DNA of 64,000 nucleotides from Escherichia coli 042 (GTDB taxonomy: Bacteria > Pseudomonadota > Gammaproteobacteria > Enterobacterales > Enterobacteriaceae), in assembly GCF_000027125.1 (NCBI RefSeq), contig NC_017626.1. The stretch is one strand, 5' to 3'. Under the pieces are notes generated by a model. That model did no database searches. It was given only the letters and a program-made list of their open reading frames with translations, and was not told where the DNA came from. A program made the translations under genes and the position numbers. This document shows, piece by piece, positions 3,433 through 52,452 of this stretch. Numbering within the stretch: position 1 is the stretch's first letter; each line of letters begins with the position of its first letter.

Positions 3433-3445
3433 GCTCGTTCTCCAC

Positions 3446-13655: not shown

Positions 13656-13656
13656 T

Positions 13657-13785: not shown

Positions 13786-13814
13786 TAAGCGAAACAGCAC
13801 CGCGAGGAATCAGT

Positions 13815-14600: not shown

Positions 14601-14789
14601 ATGAAAACGTTATTACCAAACGTTAATACGTCTGAAGGTTGTTTTGAAATTGGTGTCACTATCAGTAACCCAGTATTTACTGAAGATGCCATTAACAAGA
14701 GAAAACAAGAACGGGAGCTATTAAATAAAATATGCATTGTTTCAATGCTGGCTCGTTTACGTCTGATGCCAAAAGGATGTGCACAATGA
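14601..14789 (+). CDS. dicB: Cell division inhibitor DicB (62 aa)
   Basis: MKTLLPNVNTSEGCFEIGVTISNPVFTEDAINKRKQERELLNKICIVSMLARLRLMPKGCAQ. Confidence 0.9.
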   Translation: MKTLLPNVNTSEGCFEIGVTISNPVFTEDAINKRKQERELLNKICIVSMLARLRLMPKGCAQ

Positions 14790-14977
14790 ATTCAGCATTT
14801 GTGCTTGTTCTGACAGTTTTTCTTGTTTCCGGAGAGCCAGTTGATATTGCAGTCAGTGTTCACAGGACAATGCAGGAGTGTATGACTGCAGCAACCGAAC
14901 AGAAAATTCCCGGTAACTGTTACCCGGTCGATAAAGTTATTCACCAGGATAATATCGAAATCCCGGCAGGTCTTTAA
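14786..14977 (+). CDS. ydfD: YdfD (63 aa), small membrane protein
   Basis: MNSAFVLVLTVFLVSGEPVDIAVSVHRTMQECMTAATEQKIPGNCYPVDKVIHQDNIEIPAGL; start overlaps dicB stop. Confidence 0.8.
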   Translation: MNSAFVLVLTVFLVSGEPVDIAVSVHRTMQECMTAATEQKIPGNCYPVDKVIHQDNIEIPAGL

Positions 14978-15069
14978 AACAGTTCCGTAATAAATATCCG
15001 GTTTCATTCTTATATGCCAGCAATGGCAGGGATTTGTTCATCCTTAAATCTGTCATGAGGTTAAAACAA

Positions 15070-17541: not shown

Positions 17542-17613
17542 TGTTCAACTGTCGCCGGTTGTGACTGGTATTCTGCAACCGGCGCTCGTCTGATGTAAGA
17601 GATAAAGAAATCG

Positions 17614-17865
17614 ATGAGCGAAGTAATCATGATTGTCTCTCCCGGCAAATGGGTATCCGAAGAGCAGTTAATTGCGCTGAAAGGAATAAAAAAAGGTACG
17701 TTAAAAAAGGCCCGAGAAAAATCGTTTATGGAAGGAAGGGAATATAAGTATGTCGCTCATGACGGTATGCCATGGGATAACAGTCCATGCTTTTACAACC
17801 TGGAAGAAATTGATCGCTGGATTGAGCGCCAGGCATCAGCGAGACCAAGACGTCATCTTACTTGA
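17614..17865 (+). CDS. Excisionase-like small protein (83 aa)
   Basis: Small basic protein immediately upstream of integrase gene. Confidence 0.45.
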   Translation: MSEVIMIVSPGKWVSEEQLIALKGIKKGTLKKAREKSFMEGREYKYVAHDGMPWDNSPCFYNLEEIDRWIERQASARPRRHLT

Positions 17866-17884
17866 CTAAAAGCCACACTAACTA

Positions 17885-39972: not shown

Positions 39973-40383
39973 TGTCCTTCTCCTGCAAGAGAATTATTTT
40001 AATTTTCGCTTAATTCAGCGAAACCAAAGTAAAGTGGTCAAGCCCCGCGCTTAGCGCAAGCTTTGGCAGAAGAAAGGACTAAAGCGCGTTGCGCCAGTGC
40101 TGCTCACCTACGAGCAAGATAGTGGATGAGGTACGAAGATGGGTAAATGTAGAAAATAACGTCCTGAACAAATTGTCCATAATATTACAATTATCCGCAG
40201 TGTTGCTTCTCGTCATCGCGGATGATAATTGTCCTCGGTAGTTGAACACGCCTGATTTGTATCATAGCTTAAGAATTAACTCAAAATATTTTCACTTCTT
40301 TACCTGAGCGGTTTGATTTTCGTTATGATGACGGAGCGAAAAAGACATTATTATTAGCAAAGGAAGAAAAAACGGGGACAAGC

Positions 40384-40530
40384 ATGGCAAAGCCGATCAT
40401 CACGCTCAATGGCCTAAAAATCGTCATTATGTTGGGAATGCTGGTCATTATTCTCTGCGGTATCCGTTTTGCCGCCGAGATCATCGTGCCGTTTATTCTC
40501 GCATTATTTATTGCTGTTATATATAACTAA
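40384..40530 (+). pseudogene. tqsA: tqsA 5' fragment (first 46 native codons, then island-derived I-Y-N-stop)
   Basis: [46 protein letters not shown] then frame leaves native sequence at 40521. Confidence 0.85.
40512..40520. repeat. attL core direct repeat TGCTGTTAT
   Basis: Identical 9-mer at 51546-51554; joining the flanks restores ...[18 protein letters not shown]... of TqsA. Confidence 0.65.
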
Positions 40531-40593
40531 TTTCACTTAACGCATTGATTTAATTAAATGATTTGCACTACAAAAAGTGCCATAAATCGCAAA

Positions 40594-40617
40594 ATGACTA
40601 CACCAGTGACTACACCG
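40594..40617. repeat. Arm-type tandem repeat ATGACTACACC-AGTGACTACACCG near attL
   Basis: Same 23-24 nt tandem motif present at 51395-51418 near attR in same orientation. Confidence 0.55.
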
Positions 40618-40934
40618 TTCGGTGCACTGTATGAAACAACGTGGAACAAATAGACACAAGAAATATACAGGCGGGTCATCTTTCCAGGGGGAAGCGCGCT
40701 AATTCATGAGGGGCGTTAATGTTGATATGGGGATCCCCATAACGGGGCTACCGGATTTTTTTTCCGGTTAACTGTTAATCAGGCTGGTGGGCTTTACCTG
40801 TTTTGTAGGAGTGGTCATTATGACCATTCAGACAATGACCTTAATCAGAACTTTTCGCTAAAAAATGACGTTGGTCACGTCGTCCGGAAAGCACAAAATC
40901 CCGTCAATTTTTAATTAACGGTTAAACCGTCTTT

Positions 40935-40980
40935 TGTCACGGCGTGTCACTGGTTGTCACTCTCCGTCACGGTATGTCGC
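40935..40980. repeat. Five GTCAC-type half-sites phased at exactly 10 bp
   Basis: tGTCACggcgtGTCACtggttGTCACtctccGTCACggtatGTCGC; GTCAC is the reverse complement of the GTGAC of the arm repeats. Confidence 0.5.
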
Positions 40981-40986
40981 TACTCG

Positions 40987-41268
40987 TTAACGCCGTAACC
41001 GCTCCGGCTTCTTCCAGTGGTACGTAATTTTCTCCGTTTCCCGATACAGTGCCACGCGGCGATTGTAGGCCAGCATTTCAAGAACGCGGATCCGTATGTT
41101 GCGCATATCCACATCATTAAGCTGGATACCATCACGGCGCATCACCTCAGCAACCACACGCGCGTAATTTTCGGCGGTCACGCTGTCCGGCTGCGTGGCC
41201 TGTTCGTCATGCTGCTGGCTGATTCCGGTAACGCGGCGGATTAATCCCAGTAGTTCGGCTTCTGTCAT
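40987..41268 (-). CDS. Hypothetical island protein (93 aa from MTEAELLGLIRR)
   Basis: ORF; start chosen downstream of cos copy 1 with GGGGG SD-like upstream; longer ORF-track N-terminus would read through cos. Confidence 0.35.
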   Translation of the reverse strand: MTEAELLGLIRRVTGISQQHDEQATQPDSVTAENYARVVAEVMRRDGIQLNDVDMRNIRIRVLEMLAYNRRVALYRETEKITYHWKKPERLRR

Positions 41269-41301
41269 TGTGCCCCCATCGCTCTGATAGTCTGGTGTCG
41301 T

Positions 41302-41366
41302 CGGGTCCTTCCTGGAATTATGGCCCGTTACGGGGCGGCGACCTCGCGCGTTTTCACTATTTATGA
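41302..41366 (+). other. Lambda-type cos site copy 1 (cosN GGGCGGCGACCT at 41333-41344), followed by ACCGGACAT repeats at 41383-41479
   Basis: cgggtccttcc...gttacgGGGCGGCGACCTcgcgcgttttcactatttatgaaaatttt closely matches recalled lambda cosQ-cosN-left-end sequence. Confidence 0.7.
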
Positions 41367-41547
41367 AAATTTTTCGGGATCCATGTCCGGTTTCTCTGCA
41401 AGTTAACCATATGAAAAATATAAAAACATGCTTTCCATGAACCGGACATGCGCAAAAAACAGACACTAAAACCGGACATCGAACCAGTTAACCGAAAGTG
41501 TGCACAAATCACATGCATTGCTGCGAGTGATTAACAAGTTATCGGCT

Positions 41548-41982
41548 TTACTGTTCTGTATCGGCTGATTGCTCCATGCTGGCACGGCGAACGCTTATGG
41601 CATGACGCCACCCAGCCAGAAAGCCAGCCATTTTATTTCGTGCCTTGCTCACATCTTCCGGTGAATAGCCGTAAATCTGCAAACCTTCATCAAATCGATG
41701 TTCTGTTTCTTCACTGGAGTACTCGTCACGCTCAGATGAAAGCAGCCTGGCAAACATAATTTTTTCCAGCGCACTGGTTTCTACGTGATATCTGATGGTC
41801 TCAAGACGGCTTTTACCTGAAGACCAAAGCAATGTATGCCCGATGTGATAACCGCCAGACTTTCCGCGATCCGCATTAAGATACGGCATCCCCTGTTTGG
41901 TCCATGCGCGAATAGTGGTTCTGTTAACCTTGAAATGTTCAGCTATTTCCTGCTGACTTACAAAACAAGCTTTATCAATCAT
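41548..41982 (-). CDS. Nu1-like small terminase / packaging-specificity protein (144 aa)
   Basis: N-terminus VSQQEIAEHFKVNRTTIRAWTKQGMPYL parallels lambda Nu1 VNKKQLADIFGASIRTIQNWQEQGMPVL winged-HTH. Confidence 0.65.
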   Translation of the reverse strand: MIDKACFVSQQEIAEHFKVNRTTIRAWTKQGMPYLNADRGKSGGYHIGHTLLWSSGKSRLETIRYHVETSALEKIMFARLLSSERDEYSSEETEHRFDEGLQIYGYSPEDVSKARNKMAGFLAGWRHAISVRRASMEQSADTEQ

Positions 41983-42049
41983 AATGTTACCTTAACTGCA
42001 TGGTTAAATATTAATCAAGTGGTGGTGGTGTCACCTTCACGGAAAAACG

Positions 42050-42115
42050 TCATAAATAGCGAAAACCCGCGAGGTCGCCGCCCCGTAACGGGCCATAATT
42101 CCAGGAAGGACCCGT
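42050..42115 (-). other. Lambda-type cos site copy 2, inverted relative to copy 1 (cosN complement at 42072-42083), 88 bp upstream of terS
   Basis: Reverse complement reads ...gttacgGGGCGGCGACCTcgcgggttttcgctatttatga; 63/65 identity to copy 1. Confidence 0.7.
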
Positions 42116-42137
42116 AAAAAAGCCGGATTTCTCCGGC
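42115..42137 (-). terminator. Rho-independent terminator ending capsid operon
   Basis: Minus strand GCCGGAgaaaTCCGGC followed by T-tract. Confidence 0.6.
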
Positions 42138-42143
42138 CTTGTC

Positions 42144-42557
42144 TCAGATGTTTTTCAGTATGCGATCGATGTCGCCGTCATCGCCCTGGTTTCTGCCATC
42201 GTATGCCATGCCAGCTGATACGGCTTGCGGGCTGTGCATGTCCATAAAGTTTTCAAAGGCTGCGGTAAGTTCCGGCGCAACCTTCGGACGTTCCTGCTCT
42301 ATGGTCATGCTAAGGATGCTTTTAGCCGTACCAACATCGATACAAGGCACGTTTGCCATTGCACGCAACAGCGGCTGATAGTCTTTATGCTCATGAAGCG
42401 CCATAATCGCATCAGCGCGCGGCTTGTCCTGCTCTTCCAGTTTGTTTAGTTGATGTACGGCCTCATAGGTTGATAAACCTCTGTCAGCCATTGCCCGCGC
42501 TTCGACTTTAAATTTACTCGCCAGCGGTAGCGTCATGATGCTTTCATTCGTTGCCAT
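42144..42557 (-). CDS. Hypothetical island protein (137 aa), last gene of capsid operon
   Basis: ORF co-directional and tightly spaced after D-like gene. Confidence 0.45.
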   Translation of the reverse strand: MATNESIMTLPLASKFKVEARAMADRGLSTYEAVHQLNKLEEQDKPRADAIMALHEHKDYQPLLRAMANVPCIDVGTAKSILSMTIEQERPKVAPELTAAFENFMDMHSPQAVSAGMAYDGRNQGDDGDIDRILKNI

Positions 42558-42569
42558 CGTTCCCCCTGC

Positions 42570-42905
42570 TTATCGGGCCAGCGGCTGAACGGATACGCCG
42601 GAACCCGCAAAGGCGGCGCATTTTTTCGCATCGGTGTCGACGCTCTCAGGCCAGTTAACGGCGGCAATATTGAATATCCCCGTCTTGTAACACTGTGCTG
42701 ATTTCTGCTTTGACGTGTCCACAGGGTACGAGGTCAGATAAACAGCCTTGCCAGATTCCTGACCATCCCACGGCTTAAACTCGCCATTGTCTGCCAGCAT
42801 CAGCGGGGTAAATTCCTGAATAACGCCAGCATCAGCGGCAAAATGTACCAACGTCGTGGATACCTGCTGACTGCCTGCAAATAACTCAATGTATGGAGTG
42901 TCCAT
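42570..42905 (-). CDS. Head decoration protein, lambda gpD homolog (111 aa)
   Basis: TPLMLADNGEFKPWDG...YKTGIFNIAAVNWPESVDTDAKKCAAFAGSGVSV parallels lambda D TPLMLDTSSRKLVAWDG...[35 protein letters not shown]. Confidence 0.8.
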   Translation of the reverse strand: MDTPYIELFAGSQQVSTTLVHFAADAGVIQEFTPLMLADNGEFKPWDGQESGKAVYLTSYPVDTSKQKSAQCYKTGIFNIAAVNWPESVDTDAKKCAAFAGSGVSVQPLAR

Positions 42906-42917
42906 AGAATCCCCCCG

Positions 42918-43973
42918 TTAACCAATTTTGACGGTAACAAATTTGCGAATATCTGCCGGTACCGGCTGCGGTGCACTGTGTGTCTGCACGTACTCAATCG
43001 CCGGATCGCCGTCCTCAATCCAGTTTTTCGGGTAAAACATGTTTTGTGTTGCGCCCGTTCTTACCGCTTCCTGATCCATTATCGCACCATAGGCCACCAG
43101 CCCTTTATTGTTGGTGTTACCCAGGACCAGCAAATCAGGCTCAAGGAAATATTTTTCGGTACCATCGCTGTCAGTGTATTTGCCGGAATAGACGATAAGG
43201 GCCAGATCACCAAGATAGCCTTTAAAGCTCACCACTTCGCCCAGGTTTTTACAGGCCAGTTCGGCGGCGGATTCTGAACCACGGGAAAGATCGTACAGCT
43301 CACGGAATTTTTTAAAGCTGCGTAATGTGCGCCATACCTCAGCGCCCATAATCATGACGTTTGCGGGGCAACCAGCCTGATCAGCATAAAGCTCGATGTC
43401 ATAGATTGGGTCGTGCATGTCTTTATCCTGCTCGGACCATTTTTTACCCTTGGCCTGCTCTATGATGCAGTTTTCCGGTATTTTCCAGTCGATTTCATAG
43501 CGTTCTATGCCTTCGCCCTCAATGATGTTTTTTCCGGTCGTTACCGCATTCACCGCCAGCCATTCCACGCGTGCCTTAATGGCGTTTATCTGGCGGCGCA
43601 TGTTGCCAGTAATCAGGCGCATACGGCGATAGGTAGGGTCGTTAAGCTGTGCCGGATCTTCTCCAGCCATGCGCATGATGGTTTTCGTTGGATCGATTTC
43701 GTGCTTTGGCTTCATGTAGCCAGGTTTGATTGTGCTGGTTTCGTACCCTTTATCGCGCTGAACCTGGCTACCCACCATAGGCGAACAAAACGCCGACATG
43801 GTGACTTCTTCAATGTCCAGGGTATCCAGCATGATGTTTTGCGTGCTGAATGTCGCCACGTTCGGGAAAAACAGCGTGGTAAACAGAGGGCTGAATTTAA
43901 AATCCGCAATATCCCCGCGATTCAGGTACATGAAAAGCTGGTTAGTGTTAAGTGCCGTTGCTTTGCCTGCCAT
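42918..43973 (-). CDS. Major capsid protein, lambda gpE homolog (351 aa)
   Basis: KPGYMKPKHEIDP, DPTYRRMRLITGNMR, VSFKGYLGDLALIVYSGKY, YPKNWIEDGDPA align along recalled lambda E. Confidence 0.85.
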   Translation of the reverse strand: MAGKATALNTNQLFMYLNRGDIADFKFSPLFTTLFFPNVATFSTQNIMLDTLDIEEVTMSAFCSPMVGSQVQRDKGYETSTIKPGYMKPKHEIDPTKTIMRMAGEDPAQLNDPTYRRMRLITGNMRRQINAIKARVEWLAVNAVTTGKNIIEGEGIERYEIDWKIPENCIIEQAKGKKWSEQDKDMHDPIYDIELYADQAGCPANVMIMGAEVWRTLRSFKKFRELYDLSRGSESAAELACKNLGEVVSFKGYLGDLALIVYSGKYTDSDGTEKYFLEPDLLVLGNTNNKGLVAYGAIMDQEAVRTGATQNMFYPKNWIEDGDPAIEYVQTHSAPQPVPADIRKFVTVKIG

Positions 43974-44179
43974 TATTCACCCCCATAATTTTTATGCATC
44001 CCAAGCGCCGCAAGTAAATAAGAGCGTACAAGTGAACCTATCGACGGCTCCGGCGTCATCAGCGGATCCAGTCCAGCCGCAACGCCAGCTTCATAGTTTT
44101 TTTTGTGGCGCTGCTTGAGCACCTCCACGATTTCGGGGCTTATGTACACCGAAACACCGCCTTTTTTCTCTTCAGCCAT
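43973..44179 (-). CDS. Small protein upstream of capsid gene, possible ribbon-helix-helix fold (68 aa)
   Basis: MAEEKKGGVSVYISPEIVEVLKQRHKK; GAGGA SD; stop overlaps capsid start. Confidence 0.35.
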   Translation of the reverse strand: MAEEKKGGVSVYISPEIVEVLKQRHKKNYEAGVAAGLDPLMTPEPSIGSLVRSYLLAALGMHKNYGGE

Positions 44180-44208
44180 AGTAAGAAATTCCTCTTCGAC
44201 TAAAAAAA

Positions 44209-44236
44209 TCATAACTGGATGTTTATCCAGTTATGA
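44209..44236. promoter_or_regulatory. Perfect 12-bp inverted repeat TCATAACTGGAT-gttt-ATCCAGTTATGA in capsid-operon promoter region
   Basis: Seen directly; 30 bp upstream of operon start; second palindrome ATTGCATtttATGCAAT at 44248-44264. Confidence 0.5.
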
Positions 44237-44388
44237 TTATAATCAGAATTGCATTTTATGCAATGATATTGAGTTATGTTGCAAATTATGAAATGATTAT
44301 CCCGATCACGAACGCCAGTGCATCCAAAAACCTCATATGCAAAAGCCCGATAAGAACCCTCTGACCTTATCGGGCTTTTTTTGGGCGC

Positions 44389-44410
44389 AAAAAAGCCGGA
44401 TTGCTCCGGC
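44389..44410 (-). terminator. Rho-independent terminator after 74-aa gene
   Basis: Same GCCGGA-loop-TCCGGC module plus T-tract; preceded by second hairpin 44345-44382. Confidence 0.55.
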
Positions 44411-44430
44411 TATGTGTGCTGTGTGCTGGC

Positions 44431-44655
44431 TCAGTCTCTGATCTCTTTCAGAAATTCTATCAATGCATCTATCTGTTCAGGATTTACCGCCAGCATTTCA
44501 CCGGATAGAGCACATCTCACAAAACCATGCTGATCCTTTTCAATCAGTGCGCCCGTCTCCAGGAATGCGCGGTAATCATTGATGCTCATCGTCTCCATGT
44601 TGTCAGCATGGTATTTATCACGCTGTTTTAATATCTCATCAAATTTCATCGGCAT
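44431..44655 (-). CDS. Hypothetical island protein (74 aa)
   Basis: ORF bracketed by terminators. Confidence 0.4.
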   Translation of the reverse strand: MPMKFDEILKQRDKYHADNMETMSINDYRAFLETGALIEKDQHGFVRCALSGEMLAVNPEQIDALIEFLKEIRD

Positions 44656-44751
44656 TGTTTTTTTCCTCTGTTGTGTCTGTTTGTTTCAGATAGTAACTAT
44701 GCCTGACCGTGACGAAAACCCGGTAATGCGCCATACCGTTTCAACTGGTGC

Positions 44752-44774
44752 AAAAAAAGCCGGATTTCTCCGGC
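44752..44774 (-). terminator. Rho-independent terminator after PerC-like gene
   Basis: GCCGGAgaaaTCCGGC plus T7 on minus strand. Confidence 0.6.
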
Positions 44775-44781
44775 TGTTTGA

Positions 44782-45054
44782 TTAGCTGTCCTGGTAATTG
44801 CGCCATATTTCATCACCAGCACCATCTATACCCATTTCGGCATAAGTGCGATCGACTGCCTTTTTCAGGTCTCCGAAATTATCCGGCGGCTCCGGTGCCC
44901 TCTGTGCCTTCCTTGAACATTCCAGCCGTCGCATCGTGATGTGATGCCGTTCCTTGTCTGTCTCCACCAGCTGCATGACTTCACCCCATCGCGCCGCCGC
45001 CCTCCGGTAAAAGCCTTTCGCCTCCAGTTCCTCCGCTATGCGGTCATGTACCAT
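44782..45054 (-). CDS. PerC/Pch-family transcriptional regulator (90 aa)
   Basis: AEELEAKGFYRRAAARWGEVM resembles recalled Pch/PerC signature (…LEAQGLWRRAAARW…); GAGGGGG SD before ATG. Confidence 0.55.
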   Translation of the reverse strand: MVHDRIAEELEAKGFYRRAAARWGEVMQLVETDKERHHITMRRLECSRKAQRAPEPPDNFGDLKKAVDRTYAEMGIDGAGDEIWRNYQDS

Positions 45055-45064
45055 CGTCACCCCC

Positions 45065-45475
45065 TCAGAACGAAATATCATCACCGTAAGGGTCATCGCC
45101 TCCCGCTGGTGGCTGATTACCCTGTGTGCCTGTGGTTTTGCGTCTGTTCCCGCCTGGACGTGCCGCGCGGGCACTGATTACGCTGTCTGCGATAACCTGC
45201 CAGCCCTGCCGCGTTTCTCCGTTCTGTCCGGTCCACTGGCTTACCTGCATCGTGCCGGATACGCTGGCAACATCGCCTTTTTGATGTTTAGCCAGGAAGT
45301 CGGCCTGTTTGCCAAATGCGATGACCGATAACCATAACGTCGCCTGTCCGTCCTGTGCCTGGCTGCATGGCAAAGATACCGCCATACGCGCCAGCGTCAT
45401 CGGTGTGCCCTTGCTGGTCTGTTTTACCTGCGGGTCGTCCACCAGCCGCCCGTAAGCGGCTATCTGTGCCGTCAT
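45065..45475 (-). CDS. ssb: Single-stranded DNA-binding protein (SSB)
   Basis: OB-fold region and Gly/Pro-rich tail ending DDPYGDDISF (cf. E. coli SSB C-terminal DDDIPF). Confidence 0.8.
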   Translation of the reverse strand: MTAQIAAYGRLVDDPQVKQTSKGTPMTLARMAVSLPCSQAQDGQATLWLSVIAFGKQADFLAKHQKGDVASVSGTMQVSQWTGQNGETRQGWQVIADSVISARAARPGGNRRKTTGTQGNQPPAGGDDPYGDDISF

Positions 45476-45723
45476 AATTCCACCTCTCCGGTTTTAACGT
45501 TGATGGTTGTTACCTGTTCCGCTTCGGCAATCTCCCGTTCTGTCAGCGTGGCAAAGTTTGCCGCCGCCGTGGTCATGAATGCGCTTATCAGGTCGGGATG
45601 TTCCTTCGCGTATCCTTCCCGCGTGTGGCGGTCTATCGTTCTGATTGCCACCTTTAAGGTGTGCTCAGTCATGTCTAACGCTTTATATTTTGGCTCTGTT
45701 CTGTCTCTGCGTTTTTGGGTCAT
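45472..45723 (-). CDS. Hypothetical small protein between ori and ssb
   Basis: ORF; start uncertain (45723 or 45672). Confidence 0.3.
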   Translation of the reverse strand: MTQKRRDRTEPKYKALDMTEHTLKVAIRTIDRHTREGYAKEHPDLISAFMTTAAANFATLTEREIAEAEQVTTINVKTGEVEL

Positions 45724-45734
45724 TTCTCGCAACC

Positions 45735-45926
45735 TCTCACTTTTTCGCCTCACTTTTTCAAGCGTCTCACTTCGTCGCAGTTGGGATTTTCGGTTTTTCT
45801 ATGTGTGTGTTTCATAAGTATTTTTTTACCCCTCACTTTTGAGGATGTATACAGGTCGAAAAGTGAGGGAGAGCGGGCTAATTTTGGCCCTCTTTCTATC
45901 CCCCTCGCTTTTGCTCCTCACTTTTA
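45735..45926. repeat. Iteron array (CTCACTTTT, at least 6 copies, both orientations) with AT-rich spacer: putative island replication origin
   Basis: Copies at 45735, 45748, 45766, 45832, 45858 (inverted), 45916; directly 3' of pri-rep gene. Confidence 0.55.
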
Positions 45927-47324
45927 TAGCGGCGCTACATCATCCCCATCGATACGAATAACCCCATCTTTTTCCAGCTTGTACAGCCAGCGCCGGAAGT
46001 TTTTCATTTCATACCCCAGCTTTTTCATGTCATCACGTAACAGCGGGATCGTGCACTTGTCGCCGTTCTGTGTGCGTGAACGGATGCACCCCCATAGCGC
46101 GGTATGGTTTTCCGTCTTGTTCCCTGCCTCCTCGATGCGCTCCAGTTCAACAGGAGGGCGCGGATCATCCACCACCACCAGCGACGTGATTAATTCACCG
46201 TCAGCGTCGGTAAAAAGCTCCACCACGCGTAAGTCATATGCGGCTTCTTTGAGTTCCTCCGCGTCCTTCATTTTGGTGCATGAGATAACCAGCGCTTCGC
46301 TTCCTGCGTCCTCCCTGCGTATCCGGTATTCAGCATCCAGCGAAGCACGAAATGCACTGGAACCGCGCGCGCCTTTCGTCTCATCCTTGCCGGAATGGTG
46401 AACCACCAGCACCGTGGCCCCTGTGCGTCGTTTCAGTTCGTCACAACCACGGATAAACGCCCCCATATCACGGGAATCATTTTCATCATTCCCACCAAAG
46501 CAACGCGCCAGCGTATCCAGAATAATCATGCGTACAGGTTTACCCGTTTCCCGCTCCACCTGACGGGCAGCGATAACCATTTCATCAACATCAAGCGGGG
46601 CAGCCGGAAAGATGGGGCGGTTTACCAGATACAGATTTTTCACCTGCTCATCGTGCACAACCTCCCAGGCTTTTACACGACGCGGAACACCTATACCGCC
46701 TTCACCAACCACATAGAGAACCGCACCATGTGCAACCCTGCGGCCTCCCCACTGGCGACCAGTGGCAACATGGCACGCCCACGATCCAGCAAGGAATGAT
46801 TTATAGGACCCGCTAGCCCCGTATATGCTGCATAGCGATACCGCCGGAATAATCCCCTTAACCACGTAATCCAGTTGCGTGTCGTATCCGGTAGATCCAA
46901 CGCTCATCGGTAGCGTGGTTTTTCGCTGGTGTTTTTTTTCTTCCGCCGGCTCTTTCCCGCGCACCCGTTCCAGGTATTCGCGCCAGTTCTCCCGCATATG
47001 GCTGTGCATCCCTTCGGGGTAATAATTCGCATCAGTTACACCCGCCGCCGCCAGCTTGTGCGCAATGGCATTAATATTTGATGGCCTGATGTGGCCTGCC
47101 TTGTACAGCCGGACACAATAGCGCCCCTCGTCGATGATTCTCAGGTCTGCCAGTTCATCCAGTTGATCATCAGCCAGCACAACGGGAGGCACATTATCGC
47201 CAGCCAGTCGCCCGTCCTGTTCCTGCCACTGTTTCGCATGTGCCCAGGCATCACTACCCGCAAAAATAATGACTTCGGTCATCTTGTCGTAAGGCTGTTT
47301 TTTTAAGTTCGGTGCGCTTTTCAT
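45924..47324 (-). CDS. Primase/replicase-type AAA ATPase (RepA/AAA_25-like, 466 aa)
   Basis: Walker A GASGSYKS, Walker B MIILDTLARCFGG, VVHHSGKDETKGARGSSAF sensor region. Confidence 0.8.
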   Translation of the reverse strand: MKSAPNLKKQPYDKMTEVIIFAGSDAWAHAKQWQEQDGRLAGDNVPPVVLADDQLDELADLRIIDEGRYCVRLYKAGHIRPSNINAIAHKLAAAGVTDANYYPEGMHSHMRENWREYLERVRGKEPAEEKKHQRKTTLPMSVGSTGYDTQLDYVVKGIIPAVSLCSIYGASGSYKSFLAGSWACHVATGRQWGGRRVAHGAVLYVVGEGGIGVPRRVKAWEVVHDEQVKNLYLVNRPIFPAAPLDVDEMVIAARQVERETGKPVRMIILDTLARCFGGNDENDSRDMGAFIRGCDELKRRTGATVLVVHHSGKDETKGARGSSAFRASLDAEYRIRREDAGSEALVISCTKMKDAEELKEAAYDLRVVELFTDADGELITSLVVVDDPRPPVELERIEEAGNKTENHTALWGCIRSRTQNGDKCTIPLLRDDMKKLGYEMKNFRRWLYKLEKDGVIRIDGDDVAPL

Positions 47325-47620
47325 TTCTTGCCCCTGAATCCGTTAACCATGGTTTTCAGCTTCTGGATGTTTGCCCGTGCCCTGGCGTTGCTGGTGGGCA
47401 CGTTATGCGGCGCGGTCTGTACCAGAGAAAAATCACGCCGGAACTGATAAACAGGCATCACGCAATCATATTCGTAACCTTCACGGCGGTAGGTTACGCG
47501 CCGTTCTTCCACGTCCTTAATCATTACCGTGCCGCCGTACTGGTCGCGGTAAATATCACCGCGCGTAAATTTAGGGTGAGTGTTGCCACTGGCAGTTAAG
47601 CCAGAATATTTAAGTTTCAT
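47321..47620 (-). CDS. Hypothetical island protein (99 aa)
   Basis: ORF in tight operon; stop overlaps pri-rep start. Confidence 0.45.
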   Translation of the reverse strand: MKLKYSGLTASGNTHPKFTRGDIYRDQYGGTVMIKDVEERRVTYRREGYEYDCVMPVYQFRRDFSLVQTAPHNVPTSNARARANIQKLKTMVNGFRGKK

Positions 47621-47625
47621 TATTT

Positions 47626-47859
47626 TTATTCTCCGGTGTGCTGTTCTTTATATCTGTCGTGCAATAGATCTATTTCTTGCAGTTCCATTATTACAGGCTC
47701 AAGAAGCGTTATTAATGCTGTGGCAATTCTTGATTTTTGTTTGTCGCGTTCATTGTCGCCAAGTGTTTCAAGCCATATGCGCAATATTTCCATCATGTTT
47801 TCACTGTGAGAAAGTGCAAGAAATGCGCGGTCTATTGTTTGGTGGTAAATATCACGCAT
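47626..47859 (-). CDS. Hypothetical island protein (77 aa)
   Basis: ORF in operon. Confidence 0.4.
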   Translation of the reverse strand: MRDIYHQTIDRAFLALSHSENMMEILRIWLETLGDNERDKQKSRIATALITLLEPVIMELQEIDLLHDRYKEQHTGE

Positions 47860-48319
47860 GGCTTACATCCTCAGGAAATTTTCTTCTATAACGCGCCTCT
47901 GCCACATATTCCGCATAATCGGCGGCGATATTCAGTACATCAAGCCCCGTTGATTTATATTCTCTCGTGGAAAGTAAGAAAAAAGCCGCTCTAATAAGTT
48001 CTGGCATTGACGAAAGCGCATCAGCCGCATCATCAGGAACGCCGGAAAATTCCTGTTTCAGGGAATTAAAACGATCATCACGCATAACCCCCCCCCCATT
48101 TTCACAATCAGCAATCAGGATAGCTTTGGCCTCATTCAGCGCCGTATCAGCACTAAATTGCATGACAGCCAGTGAGTGAGGAACGAAAGCACCGGCATAT
48201 TCTGTTTCGCTGGTGGCGTGCTTATGTGCCCTGTCCGCGATAACAGAAATATCAATCAGCGCGTGCATCAGCGTTTTGATGGCTTCGGCGGCTGCGTCCG
48301 GTGTGGTTTTATTGTGCAT
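47852..48319 (-). CDS. Hypothetical island protein (155 aa)
   Basis: ORF in operon. Confidence 0.45.
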   Translation of the reverse strand: MHNKTTPDAAAEAIKTLMHALIDISVIADRAHKHATSETEYAGAFVPHSLAVMQFSADTALNEAKAILIADCENGGGVMRDDRFNSLKQEFSGVPDDAADALSSMPELIRAAFFLLSTREYKSTGLDVLNIAADYAEYVAEARYRRKFPEDVSHA

Positions 48320-48521
48320 AAAGCATCCCCTGAATATTCGTGTTAATCATTCCGGCACGTTTTGTGATTTCCTGTAATGATTCCCTTGTGGCGACAATTG
48401 CTTCATCTGGTAAGTGGTAATTACACACCACGCGACCTTTATCCACATTGACCAGTAGCTGCCCTGTGAATTTCTCACGAAACTGAATGCGGTTAAGGTC
48501 AGTAAGTGACAGATTAATCAT
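48309..48521 (-). CDS. Hypothetical island protein (70 aa)
   Basis: AGGAGG immediately upstream of ATG at 48521. Confidence 0.45.
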   Translation of the reverse strand: MINLSLTDLNRIQFREKFTGQLLVNVDKGRVVCNYHLPDEAIVATRESLQEITKRAGMINTNIQGMLYAQ

Positions 48522-48711
48522 GGCGCACCTCCTGACGAATACGGGCGGCAAATACAGCAACACAACCGGACGGGCAACGGTTACGCGCTTCGCGTTCCGT
48601 CCAGGCGGTTACGTGGATGATTTGAGATTCTCCGGCACTCAGTGCCAGAAAACGCCACACAAAGGCCGTTTGTGTGTGTACAAGGTGTGGTATATGATTT
48701 ACAGCAACCAT
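48514..48711 (-). CDS. Hypothetical island protein (65 aa), first gene of leftward operon
   Basis: AGGAG SD upstream of ATG at 48711. Confidence 0.4.
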   Translation of the reverse strand: MVAVNHIPHLVHTQTAFVWRFLALSAGESQIIHVTAWTEREARNRCPSGCVAVFAARIRQEVRHD

Positions 48712-48804
48712 AACGGCTCCTAGTTTACGTTGTTGGTTAGAAGCCCTGCGAGTGGTAACGACACTTGCGGGGCTTTGTCTTTTCATCGATTACCTTGATA
48801 AAGG

Positions 48805-48884
48805 TGTCAGCCACTATATTAGTAACGGGTGTCAGCCACGTCAATAGTGTTTTTCCGTTTTCTTGTGTGTATACTGTCAGCCAC
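48805..48884. promoter_or_regulatory. Three direct repeats TGTCAGCCAC in divergent promoter region, with TATACT -10-like element
   Basis: Repeats at 48805-48814, 48830-48839, 48875-48884. Confidence 0.5.
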
Positions 48885-48905
48885 CTAATAACGAGGAAAT
48901 CAGAT

Positions 48906-49085
48906 ATGGCAACAAAAGCAGTTAATGCAAAATCCAAAAAGCTTGAGGCTCGAGTACCACACGCAATAGCTGATGCTGTAGAAAATTTAAAGGAAGATGG
49001 CGAAAGTACAGGGCAATTTATCGTTTCGGCACTTGAAGGCGAGATCAAACGCCGCCAGCGCCGCAAGGCCAAAGAATCAGAATAA
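48906..49085 (+). CDS. Ribbon-helix-helix (CopG/Arc-like) putative repressor (59 aa)
   Basis: KKLEARVPHAIADAVENLKEDGESTGQFIVSALEGEIKR fits beta-strand/helix/helix RHH pattern; divergent from main operon. Confidence 0.5.
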   Translation: MATKAVNAKSKKLEARVPHAIADAVENLKEDGESTGQFIVSALEGEIKRRQRRKAKESE

Positions 49086-49127
49086 TCACTATCAGCGCCG
49101 TGGTGTGAGGTATTACGGCGCATTGCT

Positions 49128-49316
49128 ATGCAGGACAACACAATGACCGATAAAGAATTGACCAAAACATTATCACCGGCACGGAAAAGACGGCGCAGAA
49201 AGATAGAGCATGAATCAGAAAGATTCGCACCATGTGCTTTTGCCCTTGAGCAATTCCTTAAAGAGTACAGGGAAAAGCGCTCATTGCAGGTATGGCAACG
49301 AACTGAACCAGACTGA
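49128..49316 (+). CDS. Hypothetical small basic protein (62 aa or shorter from MTDKEL)
   Basis: ORF followed by hairpin plus T7 at ~49410-49440. Confidence 0.3.
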   Translation: MQDNTMTDKELTKTLSPARKRRRRKIEHESERFAPCAFALEQFLKEYREKRSLQVWQRTEPD

Positions 49317-49585
49317 TTGCATTGCCCACCAGCCTGATAGCGGCTATCATCCCCGTGCTTATGTTTGGGATCACACACACAAACGGCGCAGCGGGTTATC
49401 TGTTCAGAAAGGCGGCTCCATTTCGGGGCCGCTTTTTTTATACCTGAAAAACCCCAATTTTGTTGTTTTTCAGTTTCACCAGGGCGAACGAATCCCCGCC
49501 CACGTTCTGGCGTATATTCAATCTTCATGGTTATAGCTCTGTGTTCAGATGATTGATGTGTGGCGGCTGCGTGCCGCCAGCGTGA

Positions 49586-49774
49586 TTAATGAACTGCCTT
49601 GCAGCTATCCTTCCAGGCCAGAACCTCGGATAAAGACCAGCCAACGGAACGACCGCCAAGTTTACGACGTGATGGGAATTGTCCGGCCTTTTCCAGGCGG
49701 TAGCGACACGTACGGCTAAGGCCGGTTAGTTTTTCGCATTCTTTTTCACGTATAAACCGATCAGTGCTTAACAC
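49586..49774 (-). CDS. alpA: AlpA-family excision/transcription regulator
   Basis: 62 aa MLSTDRFIREKECEKLTGLSRTCRYRLEKAGQFPSRRKLGGRSVGWSLSEVLAW. Confidence 0.8.
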   Translation of the reverse strand: MLSTDRFIREKECEKLTGLSRTCRYRLEKAGQFPSRRKLGGRSVGWSLSEVLAWKDSCKAVH

Positions 49775-50048
49775 TATTGCCCCCCCTTTCGTTTCTTAAA
49801 GAGTCATCAGGTGTCTTATTGTGTCGTATTGTTCCCGCTAGAGTGATGAATGGCAAATATTGAGGATGTATGATTTACAGAAAATGAAACAGTAAGAATA
49901 AAATCTTTTAAATTCATGTTAATACAAAGGCATAAAATATTGTTTCATGCCTTTTTTCTCGCTCTTTAAAGAGTGATTCGCTAGTGTATAAAAAACCAGT
50001 GACACATTAAAAATCAGCCACTTATAAATCTGTATGCTTTTTCGCCTC

Positions 50049-50123
50049 TTGTTCGTGGTTGTTCCACATTGTTGCTCATTGTTGCACGTTGTATCTGTTC
50101 GCATATACAGTATGCGCATACTG
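50049..50123. promoter_or_regulatory. Five TTGTTSC-like repeats at ~10-bp spacing plus 16-bp perfect palindrome CAGTATGCGCATACTG (50108-50123) in int-alpA intergenic region
   Basis: Seen directly. Confidence 0.4.
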
Positions 50124-50140
50124 AAAAAACACGAAAAAAA

Positions 50141-51370
50141 TTATTTTCTTCTGGCTACTGGTAGCGTGGTTACGTTTTCATGTGTTCCCGCCAGTATCCC
50201 TAACCGCTCCGTCCACATATCCAGCGCATTGCGTTTAGCATCCAGATAACGGGAATGATTATAAACTCGCTGCATTCCTGGCATCTGGTGGCCTGTAAGC
50301 TGCTCCACGACATGCGGATCAACGCCTAAATCGTTCAGCATGGTTGTAAAGGTGCGCCGGATGTCATGCAGTGACCAGTGAGGATGATTAAGCCTCCTGT
50401 GCGCTAATCTTCCATACTGCGATACGCTGGCCTCCTGTTTCACTTCCCCCAGCAATAAGCCCGTGTGCCTGTTCTGCTCCACCAGCTGCGTGACGAACGG
50501 CAGGATCGCTTCCGGTATGGGCCGGAATATTGCGACCTTCGTTTTGCTGTGCTCCTTCGGAACGGTCCATAGCATTTCCGTAAAATCCCACTCCCCGATC
50601 TCCGATAACCTCAGTTCTACCGTTCTGGCTCCGAAGACAATCAGGAGGCGGATTAACGCGACGTAGTAAGGGGAGAATATTTTTTTGTCCAGTGCCTGCA
50701 ATAATTCGCCAAGTTCTTTGTTACTTAAGACACGTTCGCTTATATCCGGTTTTTTCCCAACGTCCGCCACGTTCAGATCGTCCAGAACGTTGCTGATTGC
50801 ATAGCGCCGCCTACGGCAGAACTTAAGCGCCTGTTTGCACGCCTGTAGCACGAATCCGGCAGTAACAGGCGTTCGCTTTGCCACCTGGTCAAAACAGGCC
50901 AGCCAGTGCCGTAGCTCGCATTTATCCAGCGGCATAGCACCAATCTGCTGTATTACGTGATTATTAAGTCGCCTTTTCAGGGCGATATAATCCACGCGGT
51001 TTTCCTTTACGTAATACTCAAGCCAGTAGGTGAGCGCATCGCCAACCGTTACCGGCTTTAACGCTTCCTGTACGGTGTAATTAAGCTCATGACGTGGATT
51101 TTTCCCCTCTGCCAGCCATGCGCGACACTGGGCGGCTTTTTCCCTGGCTGATTTCAGGCTCAGATCAGGATAACTTCCCAGCTTAATGCGTTCGGGTCGT
51201 GTCTCCCTTCCCGTTCCGGCCCTGTATGTGAAATACCAGGTCAATTTCCCTGATGTTAAATATTTCACGCTCAGGTTTCCGCCATCACTATAAAACGTGT
51301 TTTTCTCCGCTGGCTTACCATGAAGTTTCCTTAGCAAGGTATCGCTCAGTTTGTTCATTGCTCTGCTCAC
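50141..51370 (-). CDS. int: P4-type tyrosine integrase (start GTG 51370 or ATG 51358)
   Basis: 409-aa ORF; catalytic region ...HDIRRTFTTMLNDLGVDPHVVEQLTGHQMPGMQRVYNHSRY; adjacent to attR. Confidence 0.9.
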   Translation of the reverse strand: MSRAMNKLSDTLLRKLHGKPAEKNTFYSDGGNLSVKYLTSGKLTWYFTYRAGTGRETRPERIKLGSYPDLSLKSAREKAAQCRAWLAEGKNPRHELNYTVQEALKPVTVGDALTYWLEYYVKENRVDYIALKRRLNNHVIQQIGAMPLDKCELRHWLACFDQVAKRTPVTAGFVLQACKQALKFCRRRRYAISNVLDDLNVADVGKKPDISERVLSNKELGELLQALDKKIFSPYYVALIRLLIVFGARTVELRLSEIGEWDFTEMLWTVPKEHSKTKVAIFRPIPEAILPFVTQLVEQNRHTGLLLGEVKQEASVSQYGRLAHRRLNHPHWSLHDIRRTFTTMLNDLGVDPHVVEQLTGHQMPGMQRVYNHSRYLDAKRNALDMWTERLGILAGTHENVTTLPVARRK

Positions 51371-51394
51371 GTTTTACCCCCTCTTTACGAAAAA

Positions 51395-51418
51395 GTGACT
51401 ACACCAGTGACTACACCG
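51395..51418. repeat. Arm-type tandem repeat GTGACTACACC-AGTGACTACACCG near attR
   Basis: Matches 40594-40617. Confidence 0.55.
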
Positions 51419-51545
51419 ATCGTTGCACAAAGGGCTACAACGTGAAACAAGCTGGAACAAGGAAAATCACAAATCTGTTGATAATCAAAAACATAATGCA
51501 CAGCCTGAAACATTATGAAACAGCAAAAAACACCAAATGATAAAA

Positions 51546-51554
51546 TGCTGTTAT
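51546..51554. repeat. attR core direct repeat TGCTGTTAT
   Basis: Identical to 40512-40520. Confidence 0.65.
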
Positions 51555-51567
51555 TCTTAACCCGCTG

Positions 51568-52452
51568 GTGCAACACATGGTCCGCTGGCGAGTGCCGCGT
51601 GTACTGGCGGTGTCGATTTTGATGACCATCATCGTGATGGCGATGGTGTTGCTGTTAGCTTATCTGGGTTCCGCGCTCAACGAGTTGACGCGGACGTTAC
51701 CGCAATATCGCAACTCTATTATGACGCCGCTGCAAGCGATTGAACCGTTGTTGCAACGCGTAGGGATTGATGTCTCAGTTGACCAACTGGCGCATTACAT
51801 TGATCCGAACGCGGCGATGACGTTGCTCACCAACTTATTGACGCAGTTATCTAATGCCATGTCATCAATATTTTTATTGCTGCTGACGGTGCTGTTTATG
51901 CTGCTCGAAGTGCCACAATTGCCCGGAAAATTTCAGCAAATGATGGCGCGTCCGGTTGAAGGGATGGCGGCGATTCAGCGTGCGATTGACAGTGTTTCTC
52001 ATTATCTGGTGCTGAAAACAGCCATCAGCATCATCACCGGCCTGGTCGCCTGGGCGATGCTCGCCGCACTCGATGTTCGCTTCGCTTTTGTCTGGGGATT
52101 GCTGGCCTTTGCGCTTAATTACATCCCTAATATTGGTTCAGTTCTCGCAGCAATTCCCCCTATCGCTCAGGTACTGGTGTTTAATGGCTTCTACGAAGCG
52201 TTGTTGGTGCTGGCGGGATATCTGCTGATTAATCTGGTCTTCGGCAATATTCTGGAGCCGCGCATCATGGGACGTGGGCTGGGGCTTTCGACATTGGTGG
52301 TATTTTTGTCGTTGATTTTTTGGGGATGGTTGTTAGGACCGGTGGGTATGCTGCTTTCCGTGCCGTTGACAATTATTGTCAAAATTGCGCTTGAACAAAC
52401 AGCGGGAGGTCAAAGCATCGCCGTTCTGTTAAGCGATCTCAATAAAGAGTGA
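51568..52452 (+). pseudogene. tqsA: tqsA 3' fragment (lacks first ~55 codons; internal GTG/ATG present)
   Basis: [26 protein letters not shown]... continues TqsA frame to native stop. Confidence 0.85.

Follow-up and report, generated by a model that had tools for sequence, protein, structure and literature searches.

The tqsA locus of Escherichia coli 042 raises the question of whether the DNA that splits this gene is a mobile phage satellite or part of a prophage, and whether it has been described before. In the 64,000-nucleotide stretch analyzed here (the window), tqsA is interrupted by an 11,034-bp element at 40521–51554, and the element lies between the ydgD, mdtI and mdtJ genes and the pntB and pntA genes. 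The first-pass annotation had described an insertion of about 11 kb whose flanks rejoin in frame, and this was borne out by excision in silico: the fusion of 40384–40520 to 51555–52452 gave a 1,035-nt ORF encoding an uninterrupted TqsA of 344 aa. The 9-bp direct repeat that it had placed at both junctions was located as TGCTGTTAT at 40512–40520 and 51546–51554, with the copies 11,034 bp apart. The right end had been set at 51545, which is the base preceding the second copy; the whole element runs to 51554. The AI-2 exporter gene tqsA is truncated by the insertion. The same tqsA fragment is annotated in EcPF5 as a truncated AI-2 transporter pseudogene.

The 400-nt empty-site junction, excised in silico, was used as a query and was found unbroken in 5,167 of the 5,426 complete E. 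coli genomes (about 95%), in some of them with 100% identity. The left tqsA::island junction was found in 245 genomes of this set. Since the empty site is the usual state, tqsA is not naturally split in strains lacking the element, a possibility that had been raised as an objection. The occurrence of both empty and occupied sites in these numbers argues for a mobile element. The two 76-nt repeats near the ends (Table 1) are putative arm-type sites of the integrase.

The element is almost certainly EcCI042, a classical Gram-negative phage-inducible chromosomal island (PICI) of the EcCICFT073 type with a P4-type integrase and a 9-bp core in tqsA. EcCI042 has been listed in E. coli 042 at FN554766.1:1832521-1843554, with a size of 11,034 bp, insertion in tqsA, the att core ATAACAGCA and the accessory genes rgdR (listed as rdgR) and perC (Table S1, Fillol-Salom et al., 2018, ISME J 12:2114, PMC6092414). 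This core is the reverse complement of TGCTGTTAT. The element shares the site, the size and both accessory genes with EcCI042, as well as an Int of 405 aa and an AlpA of 62 aa, the lengths of EC042_1767 and EC042_1766, and no differences were detected in size, att, gene lengths or coordinates. The published coordinates fit 40521–51554 base for base if the window is FN554766.1:1792001-1856000, and the offset (1832521 − 40521 = 1,792,000 = 28 × 64,000) is consistent with a 64-kb tile of FN554766.1. The identification rests on size, att core, gene lengths and this arithmetic, not on direct alignment. Being already catalogued, the element is not new; of the two options that the first-pass annotation had left open, the known Gram-negative PICI lineage holds and the undescribed variant does not. 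Its view of the locus as a phage satellite, a PICI and not a prophage fragment, was backed by the match to the EcCI042 entry and by the homology of the late module to that of EcCICFT073.

Table 1. Features of the element in tqsA and of its borders, in window positions.
Feature	Position	Strand	Remarks
tqsA 5' fragment, first 45 native codons	40384–40520	+	ends with attL core TGCTGTTAT at 40512–40520
76-nt imperfect direct repeat, left copy	40591–40666	+	tandem GTGACTACACC motif; 76% identical to 51392–51467
Hypothetical, 93 aa, last island gene	40987–41268	-	phrog_1561
cos2, lambda-like cosQ/cosN	41302–41379	+	cosN GGGCGGCGACCT at 41333–41344; inverted relative to cos1
rppA (redirecting phage packaging protein), 144 aa	41548–41982	-	Nu1-like winged-HTH N-terminus
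cos1, cosQ/cosN	42037–42114	-	cosN at 42072–42083
137-aa gene like the C-terminal Nu3/scaffold-like tail of lambdoid S49 head protease	42144–42557	-	phrog_53
Head decoration protein homolog (lambda D / phage 21 SHP), 111 aa	42570–42905	-	phrog_49
Major capsid protein homolog (lambda E family), 351 aa	42918–43973	-	phrog_29, 1.5e-107
Small conserved hypothetical, directly upstream of capsid gene	43973–44212	-	phrog_3255
Conserved hypothetical, 74 aa	44431–44655	-	phrog_1957
PerC-family transcriptional regulator, accessory	44782–45054	-	RefSeq name in O157; phrog_994 and activator families
Single-stranded DNA-binding protein, 136 aa	45065–45475	-	phrog_44; TIGR00621 above its cutoff
Small conserved hypothetical, 83–93 aa	45472–45753	-	phrog_1231
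Putative replication origin	45714–45925	.	directly 3' of replication gene
Replication initiator/helicase, 466 aa ("pri-rep" allele, RepA/AAA_25 type)	45924–47324	-	phrog_2850, phrog_906
rgdR (DUF4222), 99 aa	47321–47620	-	RGD motif at residues 20–22; like ECs1581/C1493
Three small conserved PICI genes, 77, 155 and ~70–84 aa	47626–48563	-	
Icd-like (host cell division inhibitor-like) small gene	48514–48786	-	phrog_1743, phrog_6196
YlcI/YnfO-like gene, 59 aa	48906–49085	+	phrog_949 / phrog_21027, listed jointly with 62-aa neighbour
Hypothetical, 62 aa	49128–49316	+	pair with 48906–49085 gene, opposite strand
alpA, 62 aa, activator of PICI cycle	49586–49774	-	Pfam Phage_AlpA, 6e-17
P4-type tyrosine integrase	50141–51370	-	phrog_1; 409 aa from GTG, 405 aa from first ATG
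76-nt imperfect direct repeat, right copy	51392–51467	+	repeat family D1
attR core TGCTGTTAT (51546–51554), then tqsA 3' part	51546–52452	+	

The P4-type int, AlpA, pri-rep and SSB named beforehand are all present, with the support of Pfam, PHROG and TIGR00621 matches. The integrase contains the Arm-DNA-bind_3 and Phage_integrase domains and shares 372 of 407 residues (91%) with Int of EcCICFT073, whose att site is ycfD-phoQ with the core GGACATATTT, in contrast to tqsA in the window. The replication protein (AAA_25 domain, 5e-43; PHROG primase/helicase families) is the allele of the O157 islands, whereas EcCICFT073 encodes a 584-aa protein of the primase family that is related, and alignable, over the N-terminal 125 aa only (62%). 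The candidate origin comprises three copies of a 17-nt repeat, about 84 bp apart, and a palindrome, and its position fits the ori organization described for PICIs.

The prototype of the Gram-negative PICIs is EcCICFT073 (Fillol-Salom 2018, ISME J; Fillol-Salom 2019, Mol Cell 75:1020; review by Murialdo & Feiss, 2022). It has the same gene order as the 042 element from int through the last small gene, and the 93-aa hypothetical is the counterpart of the 282-nt gene after rppA in CFT073. Both islands carry alpA, rgdR, perC and ssb, and in both of them rpp lies between two lambda-type cos sites of opposite orientation. The identity to the EcCICFT073 proteins is 99% for RppA, 97% for the capsid homolog (339/351, c1499), 98% for the decoration homolog (109/111, c1500) and 96% for the 137-aa protein (131/137). 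In EcCICFT073, AlpA has been described as the activator, helper phages induce the island, and its transfer, which requires int, alpA and pri-rep, reached 1e5–1e6 per ml when phage 4, lambda or phi80 was used.

The 64 kb contain just two copies of the lambda cohesive end GGGCGGCGACCT, at 41333–41344 (+) and 42072–42083 (-), against a chance expectation of none. The cos that had been noticed is therefore not single, and the two inverted sites form a 78-nt inverted repeat (I1) with 91% identity. The cos2 sequence matches the published "CFT073 cos.2"; in cos1, cosN is followed by a PICI-specific cosB/R3 region that extends up to the start of rppA, and the sequence downstream of cosN matches "CFT073 cos.1". 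The 144-aa product had been taken for a Nu1-like TerS. Its Nu1-like winged-HTH was confirmed but not its identity as TerS, since 142 of the 144 residues are identical to the 144-aa gene product at the RppA (c1503) position of CFT073; the RppC structure 6HLK was also matched (E=4.5e-31). Judged by its sequence, this protein is RppA and not a terminase subunit. In EcCICFT073, RppA has been reported to bind TerS, to block lambda and phi80 and to be required for island packaging, and both cos sites are functional.

The PICI cycle has been shown for the near-identical EcCICFT073, and by homology the 042 element would follow the same steps, although its different replication allele counts against this. 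When a lambdoid helper phage goes into lytic growth, it would turn on alpA, AlpA would activate the single leftward operon, and the element would be excised by Int and replicated into concatemers by the Rep helicase and SSB with the adjacent iteron origin. RppA and the helper small terminase (a TerS of the lambda Nu1 type) would form a heterocomplex that no longer recognises the phage cosB and that binds the island cos (lambda-like cosQ/cosN with an island-specific R3). The helper TerL would hence cut the island DNA and package it into helper-made virions, and helper packaging would be blocked.

It is improbable that the element is instead inert, the remains of a P4-like or lambdoid cryptic prophage in decay, immobile and kept only for RgdR and PerC. 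The O157 counterpart (CP-933C, Sp7, O-island 51) was long annotated in this way and has been described as a highly degraded prophage consisting of P4 remnants, and in related islands alpA is separated from the small genes by an "Icd-like" stretch that RefSeq marks as pseudo. In a published experiment with a marked 042 element (O42 1749::cat), mitomycin C treatment of strain 042 yielded <1 transductant/ml, no detectable transfer, which weighs against mobility of this copy and would suit a remnant, although this native strain may be without a resident helper. Decay is opposed by the full length of all functional genes known from EcCICFT073 (int, alpA, rep, ssb and rppA), by the intact state of the two cos sites and the two att cores, by the purifying selection on the capsid and decoration genes between island alleles (dN/dS 0.03–0.16) and by the transfer of EcCICFT073. 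It is also opposed by the 11.2-kb PICI of O157:H7/O55:H7 at ycfD-phoQ (EcCIRM12579 type; the site of O-island 51 / CP-933C / Sp7). A block of 6.7 kb (window 42042–48783), comprising the Nu3-like gene, capsid, decoration, perC, ssb, rep and rgdR to the Icd-like gene, is 99.5% identical in this island. The O157:H7/O55:H7 island differs in the att site, in the int region (only ~94% identical), in the alpA-proximal small genes and in the rpp region, where there is another allele, a 180-aa gene annotated as "terminase small subunit" in TW14359. The same modules at different att sites with such identity therefore point to recent movement and recombination.

The lambda E/D capsid homologs that had been recognized were confirmed by phrog_29, by phrog_49 and by structure matches: the capsid homolog matched PDB 3BQW, "putative capsid protein of prophage" (9e-232), and lambda gpE 7VI9 (1.6e-80), and the decoration homolog matched phage 21 SHP, PDB 1TD0 (1.7e-13), and lambda gpD (4e-9). 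Such a head module on a PICI backbone had not been assigned to a described family; it was already known in EcCICFT073, with c1499 (crystal structure 3BQW) as capsid homolog and c1500 as decoration homolog. As stated before, no portal, TerL, protease or tail genes were found among the island ORFs, and none adjoin the element in the flanks, so the satellite reading is not refuted by contiguous prophage genes. The statement that a scaffold is missing is doubtful, because the 137-aa ORF is similar to the C-terminal part of a lambdoid head protease, a scaffold-like tail. Its residues 47–119 align to positions 496–567 of the 583 in the phrog_53 profile, and it shares 37% identity over 83 aa with residues 416–493 of the S49 peptidase of the CFT073 lambdoid prophage; this neighbour of the decoration gene is thus probably a scaffold-like (Nu3-like) gene.

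The presence of major capsid, decoration and scaffold-like proteins could suggest a capsid-forming PICI (cf-PICI), which makes small capsids itself and relies on the helper for tails only. A related backbone of int, alpA and rep is common to classical E. coli PICIs and cf-PICIs such as EcCIEDL933, which is also induced by AlpA (Alqurainy et al., bioRxiv 10.1101/2022.09.08.507074). However, EcCIEDL933, of 15.4 kb, encodes HNH, TerS, TerL, portal, protease, capsid and connectors and forms small capsids of its own (bioRxiv 10.1101/2022.09.08.507074), and of this gene set the 042 island has only the capsid protein, which is lambda E-like; HNH, TerS, TerL, portal, head maturation protease and head-tail connectors were not found among its ORFs. 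Membership was rejected because TerL, portal and protease are missing; in addition, the island has 11 kb versus about 15 kb, and rpp with lambda-type cos is the hallmark of the classical, TerS-hijacking type, which makes a cf-PICI exceedingly unlikely. Equally negligible is a P4-like satellite dependent on a P2-type helper, to which the P4-type integrase with Arm-DNA-bind_3, the AlpA/Vis-like regulator, the primase/helicase-type replication protein and one Icd-like small gene would conform, but which is contradicted by the gene content: no island ORF matches the P4 genes for morphogenesis and control (sid, psu, delta or epsilon), cos carries the lambda cohesive end and not a P2/P4 cos, the late module resembles that of lambda (E, D and a Nu1-like Rpp), and the literature explicitly sets EcCICFT073-type islands apart from P4.

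Besides the genes of the classical PICI cycle, the island carries the regulators RgdR and PerC, intact lambda E and D homologs and the probable Nu3-like scaffold tail. In EHEC, RgdR has been described as regulating LEE/T3S and motility; ECs1581/C1493 likewise has 99 aa with RGD at 20–22. The product of the small gene upstream of the capsid gene has 79 aa as an ORF and 68 aa as annotated in relatives.

The island, an 11,034-bp insertion in tqsA (40521-51554), is bounded by the 9-bp core TGCTGTTAT, present at 40512-40520 and 51546-51554 with a spacing of 11,034 bp. The first 45 codons of tqsA lie upstream of the left copy and the remainder of the gene downstream of the right one. When 40384-40520 and 51555-52452 were joined in silico, an uninterrupted frame of 1,035 nt encoding a 344-aa TqsA was obtained, and thus the direct repeat and the rejoining flanks proposed in the first-pass annotation were both recovered. 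In 5,167 of the 5,426 complete E. coli genomes the 400-nt junction expected after excision was uninterrupted (in several of them with 100% identity), and the left junction between tqsA and an island was found in 245. Therefore, an intact tqsA is the rule and the island a mobile element that is polymorphic among strains, so a naturally split gene does not explain it. The gene, which encodes an AI-2 exporter, is truncated by island insertion in approximately 4.5% of the complete genomes and is most likely inactivated in the carriers. Both halves are annotated in RefSeq as pseudogene fragments in EcPF5, a relative carrying an island at tqsA. The tqsA frame is not restored by the island: just 5' of the core at attR there is an in-frame TAA (51541-51543). 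A product of the 3' part would be possible only in an N-terminally truncated form, for example from the GTG at 51568.

When reverse-complemented, the core reads ATAACAGCA, the one published for tqsA, so that a direct repeat at a catalogued site (attC) was present, as in classical phage-inducible chromosomal islands (PICIs). An island of this kind, EcCI042, is listed for E. coli 042 at FN554766.1:1832521-1843554, with a size of 11 kb, the att core ATAACAGCA, insertion in tqsA and the accessory genes rdgR and perC (PMC6092414, Table S1). The published interval comprises 11,034 bp, equal to the length of the island. The difference between the two start positions (1832521 - 40521) is 1,792,000, or 28 x 64,000; were the window a 64-kb tile of FN554766.1, the published coordinates would fall exactly on 40521-51554. 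Moreover, the genes EC042_1767 (int, 405 aa) and EC042_1766 (alpA, 62 aa) of Table S3 both match open reading frames of the window. From the size, the att core, the gene lengths and the coordinates, the element was identified as EcCI042 or, failing that, as a member of the same published group that could not be told apart from it.

The same gene order was observed in EcCICFT073, the prototype Gram-negative PICI of E. coli CFT073. Its proteins were identical to those of the island at 339/351 positions for the capsid protein (c1499), 109/111 for the decoration protein (c1500), 131/137 for the 137-aa protein and 372/407 for Int, and the deposited structure of c1499 (3BQW) was the top PDB match of the island capsid protein. 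By contrast, the replication proteins share only the first 125 residues (62% identity), a divergence that fits the four Pri-Rep alleles reported in E. coli PICIs. Apart from two small genes, the whole island is encoded on the minus strand, and its order in this one direction (int, alpA, small genes, rgdR, rep, ssb, late module) is that of CFT073. The 11,034 bp of the element, with no full morphogenesis set, are within the size of classical PICIs (about 10-15 kb). In gene organization, att site, size and gene content, and Rpp-cos pair, the element agreed with the classical Gram-negative PICI of the EcCICFT073 type (Fillol-Salom et al., 2018); its origin is putative. Its description as a satellite of this kind was upheld by the int/alpA/rep organization, the Rpp protein, the cos sites and the kinship to EcCICFT073. 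The first-pass annotation could not place lambda E/D head genes on a PICI backbone and left open a known lineage or an undescribed variant; the first is correct and the second is not, since the element is already catalogued at these coordinates and the combination has been described for the prototype, which has the capsid and decoration homologs in common with the island.

Features of the island and of the neighboring prophage region (window coordinates; genes of the island in transcription order)
Feature	Position	Strand	Basis or remark
Tyrosine integrase, Arm-DNA-bind_3 and Phage_integrase domains	50141-51370	-	PHROG, domain search
AlpA	49586-49774	-	Pfam Phage_AlpA, 6e-17
Small conserved genes, including an Icd-like one	between alpA and rgdR	-	RefSeq/PHROG
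62-aa gene	49128-49316	opposite to 263-aa ORF	
YlcI/YnfO-like gene	48906-49085	opposite to 263-aa ORF	
RgdR, 99-aa DUF4222 protein, RGD at residues 20-22	47321-47620	-	RgdR of Flockhart et al. 2012
Replication protein, AAA_25/RepA-type, 466 aa	45924-47324	-	PHROG, domain search
Origin-like repeats	45714-45925, just past rep stop		three 17-nt repeats ~84 bp apart plus palindrome
SSB	downstream of rep	-	PHROG, NCBIfam
PerC-family regulator	after ssb	-	RefSeq name, PHROG
Major capsid protein homolog, 351 aa	after perC	-	phrog_29 1.5e-107; lambda gpE 1.6e-80
Decoration protein homolog, 111 aa	after capsid gene	-	PHROG, PDB
137-aa protein	42144-42557	-	phrog_53 C-terminal end
144-aa protein with Nu1-like winged helix-turn-helix	after 137-aa gene	-	PHROG, PDB
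93-aa gene	final gene	-	
Qin-like prophage genes	1-19180		rrrQ, essD, cspB/F, ydfT (Q antiterminator), hokD, relBE, dicA/C/B, exonuclease, xis, int
Qin-like prophage int	17900-19180		adjoins rspB

The repeats that follow the rep stop codon look like a replication origin placed 3' of the gene. A 263-aa open reading frame directly downstream of alpA (48737-49528, minus strand) overlaps two conserved small genes of the opposite strand and has a non-coding-like composition; it is probably spurious, because the equivalent stretch in related islands is annotated in RefSeq as a partial 'Icd-like' pseudogene. No defence genes were detected by PADLOC among ten small or unknown island proteins, and no Rfam family reached its gathering threshold in 40000-52000. 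NCBIfam provided nothing informative on the capsid, decoration, Rpp, AlpA and 137-aa proteins, and a promoter scan performed no better than on shuffled sequence.

The lambda cohesive-end sequence GGGCGGCGACCT was found in exactly two copies in the 64-kb window, at 42072-42083 (minus strand) and 41333-41344 (plus strand), when 0 were expected by chance. The cos noted in the first-pass annotation is therefore real and consists of two exact lambda cosN sites in inverted orientation. Both copies are within a 78-nt inverted repeat (91% complementary), the arms of which lie on either side of the gene for the 144-aa protein. This protein had been read as a small terminase subunit (TerS), an assignment that has to be replaced: in spite of its Nu1-like winged helix-turn-helix, it matches Rpp, both by the crystal structure of RppC (6HLK, E=4.5e-31) and by 142/144 identical residues with the 144-aa gene of CFT073 at the position of RppA (c1503). 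The sequence downstream of both cosN sites tracks the published cos.1 and cos.2 of CFT073, not the lambda cosB. Thus, Rpp was found together with a helper-type cos (cosQ/cosN) lacking the helper cosB, as in classical PICIs.

Capsid-forming PICIs (cf-PICIs), such as EcCIEDL933, also encode a capsid protein, within a set formed by HNH, TerS, TerL, portal, protease, capsid protein and head-tail connectors. This class was rejected for the island, in which only capsid, decoration and scaffold-like homologs were found, with no HNH, TerL, portal, protease or connector. A P4-like satellite was considered as well, and Int, AlpA and Rep of P4 are distantly related to those of the island, in line with the literature; there was no PHROG match to Sid, Psu, Delta, Epsilon or the alpha primase, and the cos is a lambda cohesive end and not of the P2 type. 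A lambdoid prophage, or a fragment of one, was discarded because the island is bordered by core genes at both ends (ydgD, mdtI and mdtJ at one, pntB and pntA at the other) and no portal, TerL, tail, lysis or immunity genes are contiguous with the island. Genes for TerL, portal, protease, tail and lysis were likewise not found among the island open reading frames scanned with PHROG. The absence of portal, protease, TerL and tail genes claimed from the raw sequence was thus confirmed, in the flanks as well for portal, TerL and tail, and that of a scaffold was not, as the 137-aa protein is a probable scaffold-tail homolog. The nearest prophage DNA is the Qin-like region, separated from the island by approximately 21 kb of core genes. 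This region corresponds to the early/regulatory portion of a lambdoid cryptic prophage resembling Qin that extends beyond the left end of the window, where any head or tail genes would fall.

The functioning of EcCICFT073 has been described. The helpers CFT073 phage 4, lambda and phi80 raise the expression of alpA in an SOS-independent manner, and AlpA activates its own promoter and island genes; overexpression of AlpA alone leads to excision and runaway replication, for which int and pri are needed. Transfer requires int, alpA and the helper terS, and is strongly lowered without pri-rep. EcCICFT073 has two functional cos sites (PMC6092414): deletion of cos1 lowers transfer, deletion of cos2 increases it and the double deletion abolishes it. 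RppA binds the TerS of lambda and phi80, with escape mutants located in TerS (e.g., E65K); the heterocomplex no longer recognizes phage DNA and binds island DNA, and RppA is needed for island packaging. Murialdo and Feiss placed the Rpp site at an R3-like position approximately 48-65 bp from cosN and argued that TerS brings in TerL. The same mechanism very likely applies to the 042 island, because its RppA is 99% identical and cos1 matches from cosN through the rpp start. By analogy, a helper would raise alpA expression, activation by AlpA would lead to excision and replication, and an RppA-TerS heterocomplex would leave the phage DNA and bind that of the island. After mitomycin C treatment of the native strain 042, the marked element produced <1 transductant per ml, and this missing transfer may reflect only the lack of a resident helper in that strain. 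PICIs of the EcCICFT073 type spread at high frequency via lambda-like phages, block helper packaging through Rpp and carry RgdR and PerC, regulators affecting LEE/type III secretion in EHEC. The element adds no new biology to this picture; it was correctly recognizable as a PICI from the raw sequence alone, as one of an already known type.

The match of the 137-aa protein to phrog_53, a family of head maturation proteases, falls at the C-terminal end of the profile (positions 496-567 of 583). A pairwise BLASTP also aligned the protein with the S49 peptidase (501 aa) of a CFT073 lambdoid prophage, at residues 416-493 of the peptidase (37% identity over 83 residues). These two matches are the entire basis of the scaffold-like reading; the Pfam and PDB sequence searches returned nothing significant, and neither support nor contradict it. 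In lambda, Nu3, the scaffold, corresponds to the C-terminal portion of protease gene C. Therefore, the island probably encodes a Nu3-like scaffold-tail homolog beside the E and D homologs. No mention of the likeness to the S49 protease tail was found in the papers examined.

The capsid, decoration and 137-aa genes are intact and 96-98% conserved between islands. Compared with the proteins of the known helper prophage, the island capsid and decoration proteins are only 45 and 44% identical, respectively. Among the 042-type, CFT073 and EcPF5 alleles, dN/dS was 0.12-0.16 for capsid and 0.03-0.15 for decoration, and higher (0.27-0.72) for the 137-aa gene; between island alleles, purifying selection acts on the capsid and decoration genes. 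It is puzzling that the islands retain these intact, selected lambda homologs although deleting the capsid, decoration and scaffold-tail homologs had no phenotypic effect. The marker of the published EcCICFT073 islands was either tetA, placed in c1501, or cat, substituted for c1499, and the deletions of c1499 and c1500 were made in the c1501::tetA background. From the gene numbering we infer that c1501 is the Nu3-like 137-aa gene; if so, all of the published marked islands carried a three-gene module that was not intact. That the three genes form a working module for capsid assembly or remodelling, the role of which has been missed so far, nevertheless seems improbable.

Additionally, a central block of 6.7 kb (42042-48783) was 99.5% identical to islands of 11.2 kb in O157:H7 and O55:H7, in O157:H7 TW14359 at positions 5756-12493 of the locus (L001) with the island at ycfD-phoQ. 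This site has long been annotated as the cryptic prophage CP-933C / Sp7 / O-island 51. By contrast, the int end is only ~94% identical to that of the O157 islands, and the TW14359 rpp segment, a different allele, had no nucleotide match; the rppA/cos2 segment of the island is of the CFT073 type. These differences between blocks make modular exchange between PICIs with different attachment sites clear. No genome exceeded 86% coverage in one place in a whole-island megablast against the 5,426 complete genomes, and precisely this combination of a tqsA-type int, an O157-type middle and a CFT073-type rppA was absent from them, though 245 have an island at tqsA.

Three terminator-like hairpins were observed within the island operon, past the 137-aa gene and just before cos1 (42113-42142), past a 74-aa gene (44386-44415) and past perC (44750-44779). 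On the transcribed minus strand all three read GCCGGAG(A/C)AATCCGGC and then continue into a run of T, and they may be read-through-controlled terminators. Finally, a 76-nt imperfect direct repeat with tandem GTGACTACACC was located just inside each island end (40591-40666 and 51392-51467). The repeated TTGTTCCAC/TTGTTGC motifs of the int-alpA intergenic region (50047-50095) complement the distal part of this repeat, GAAACAACGTGGAACAA, and the end repeats and these motifs may be arm-type sites for Int or may be bound by AlpA.
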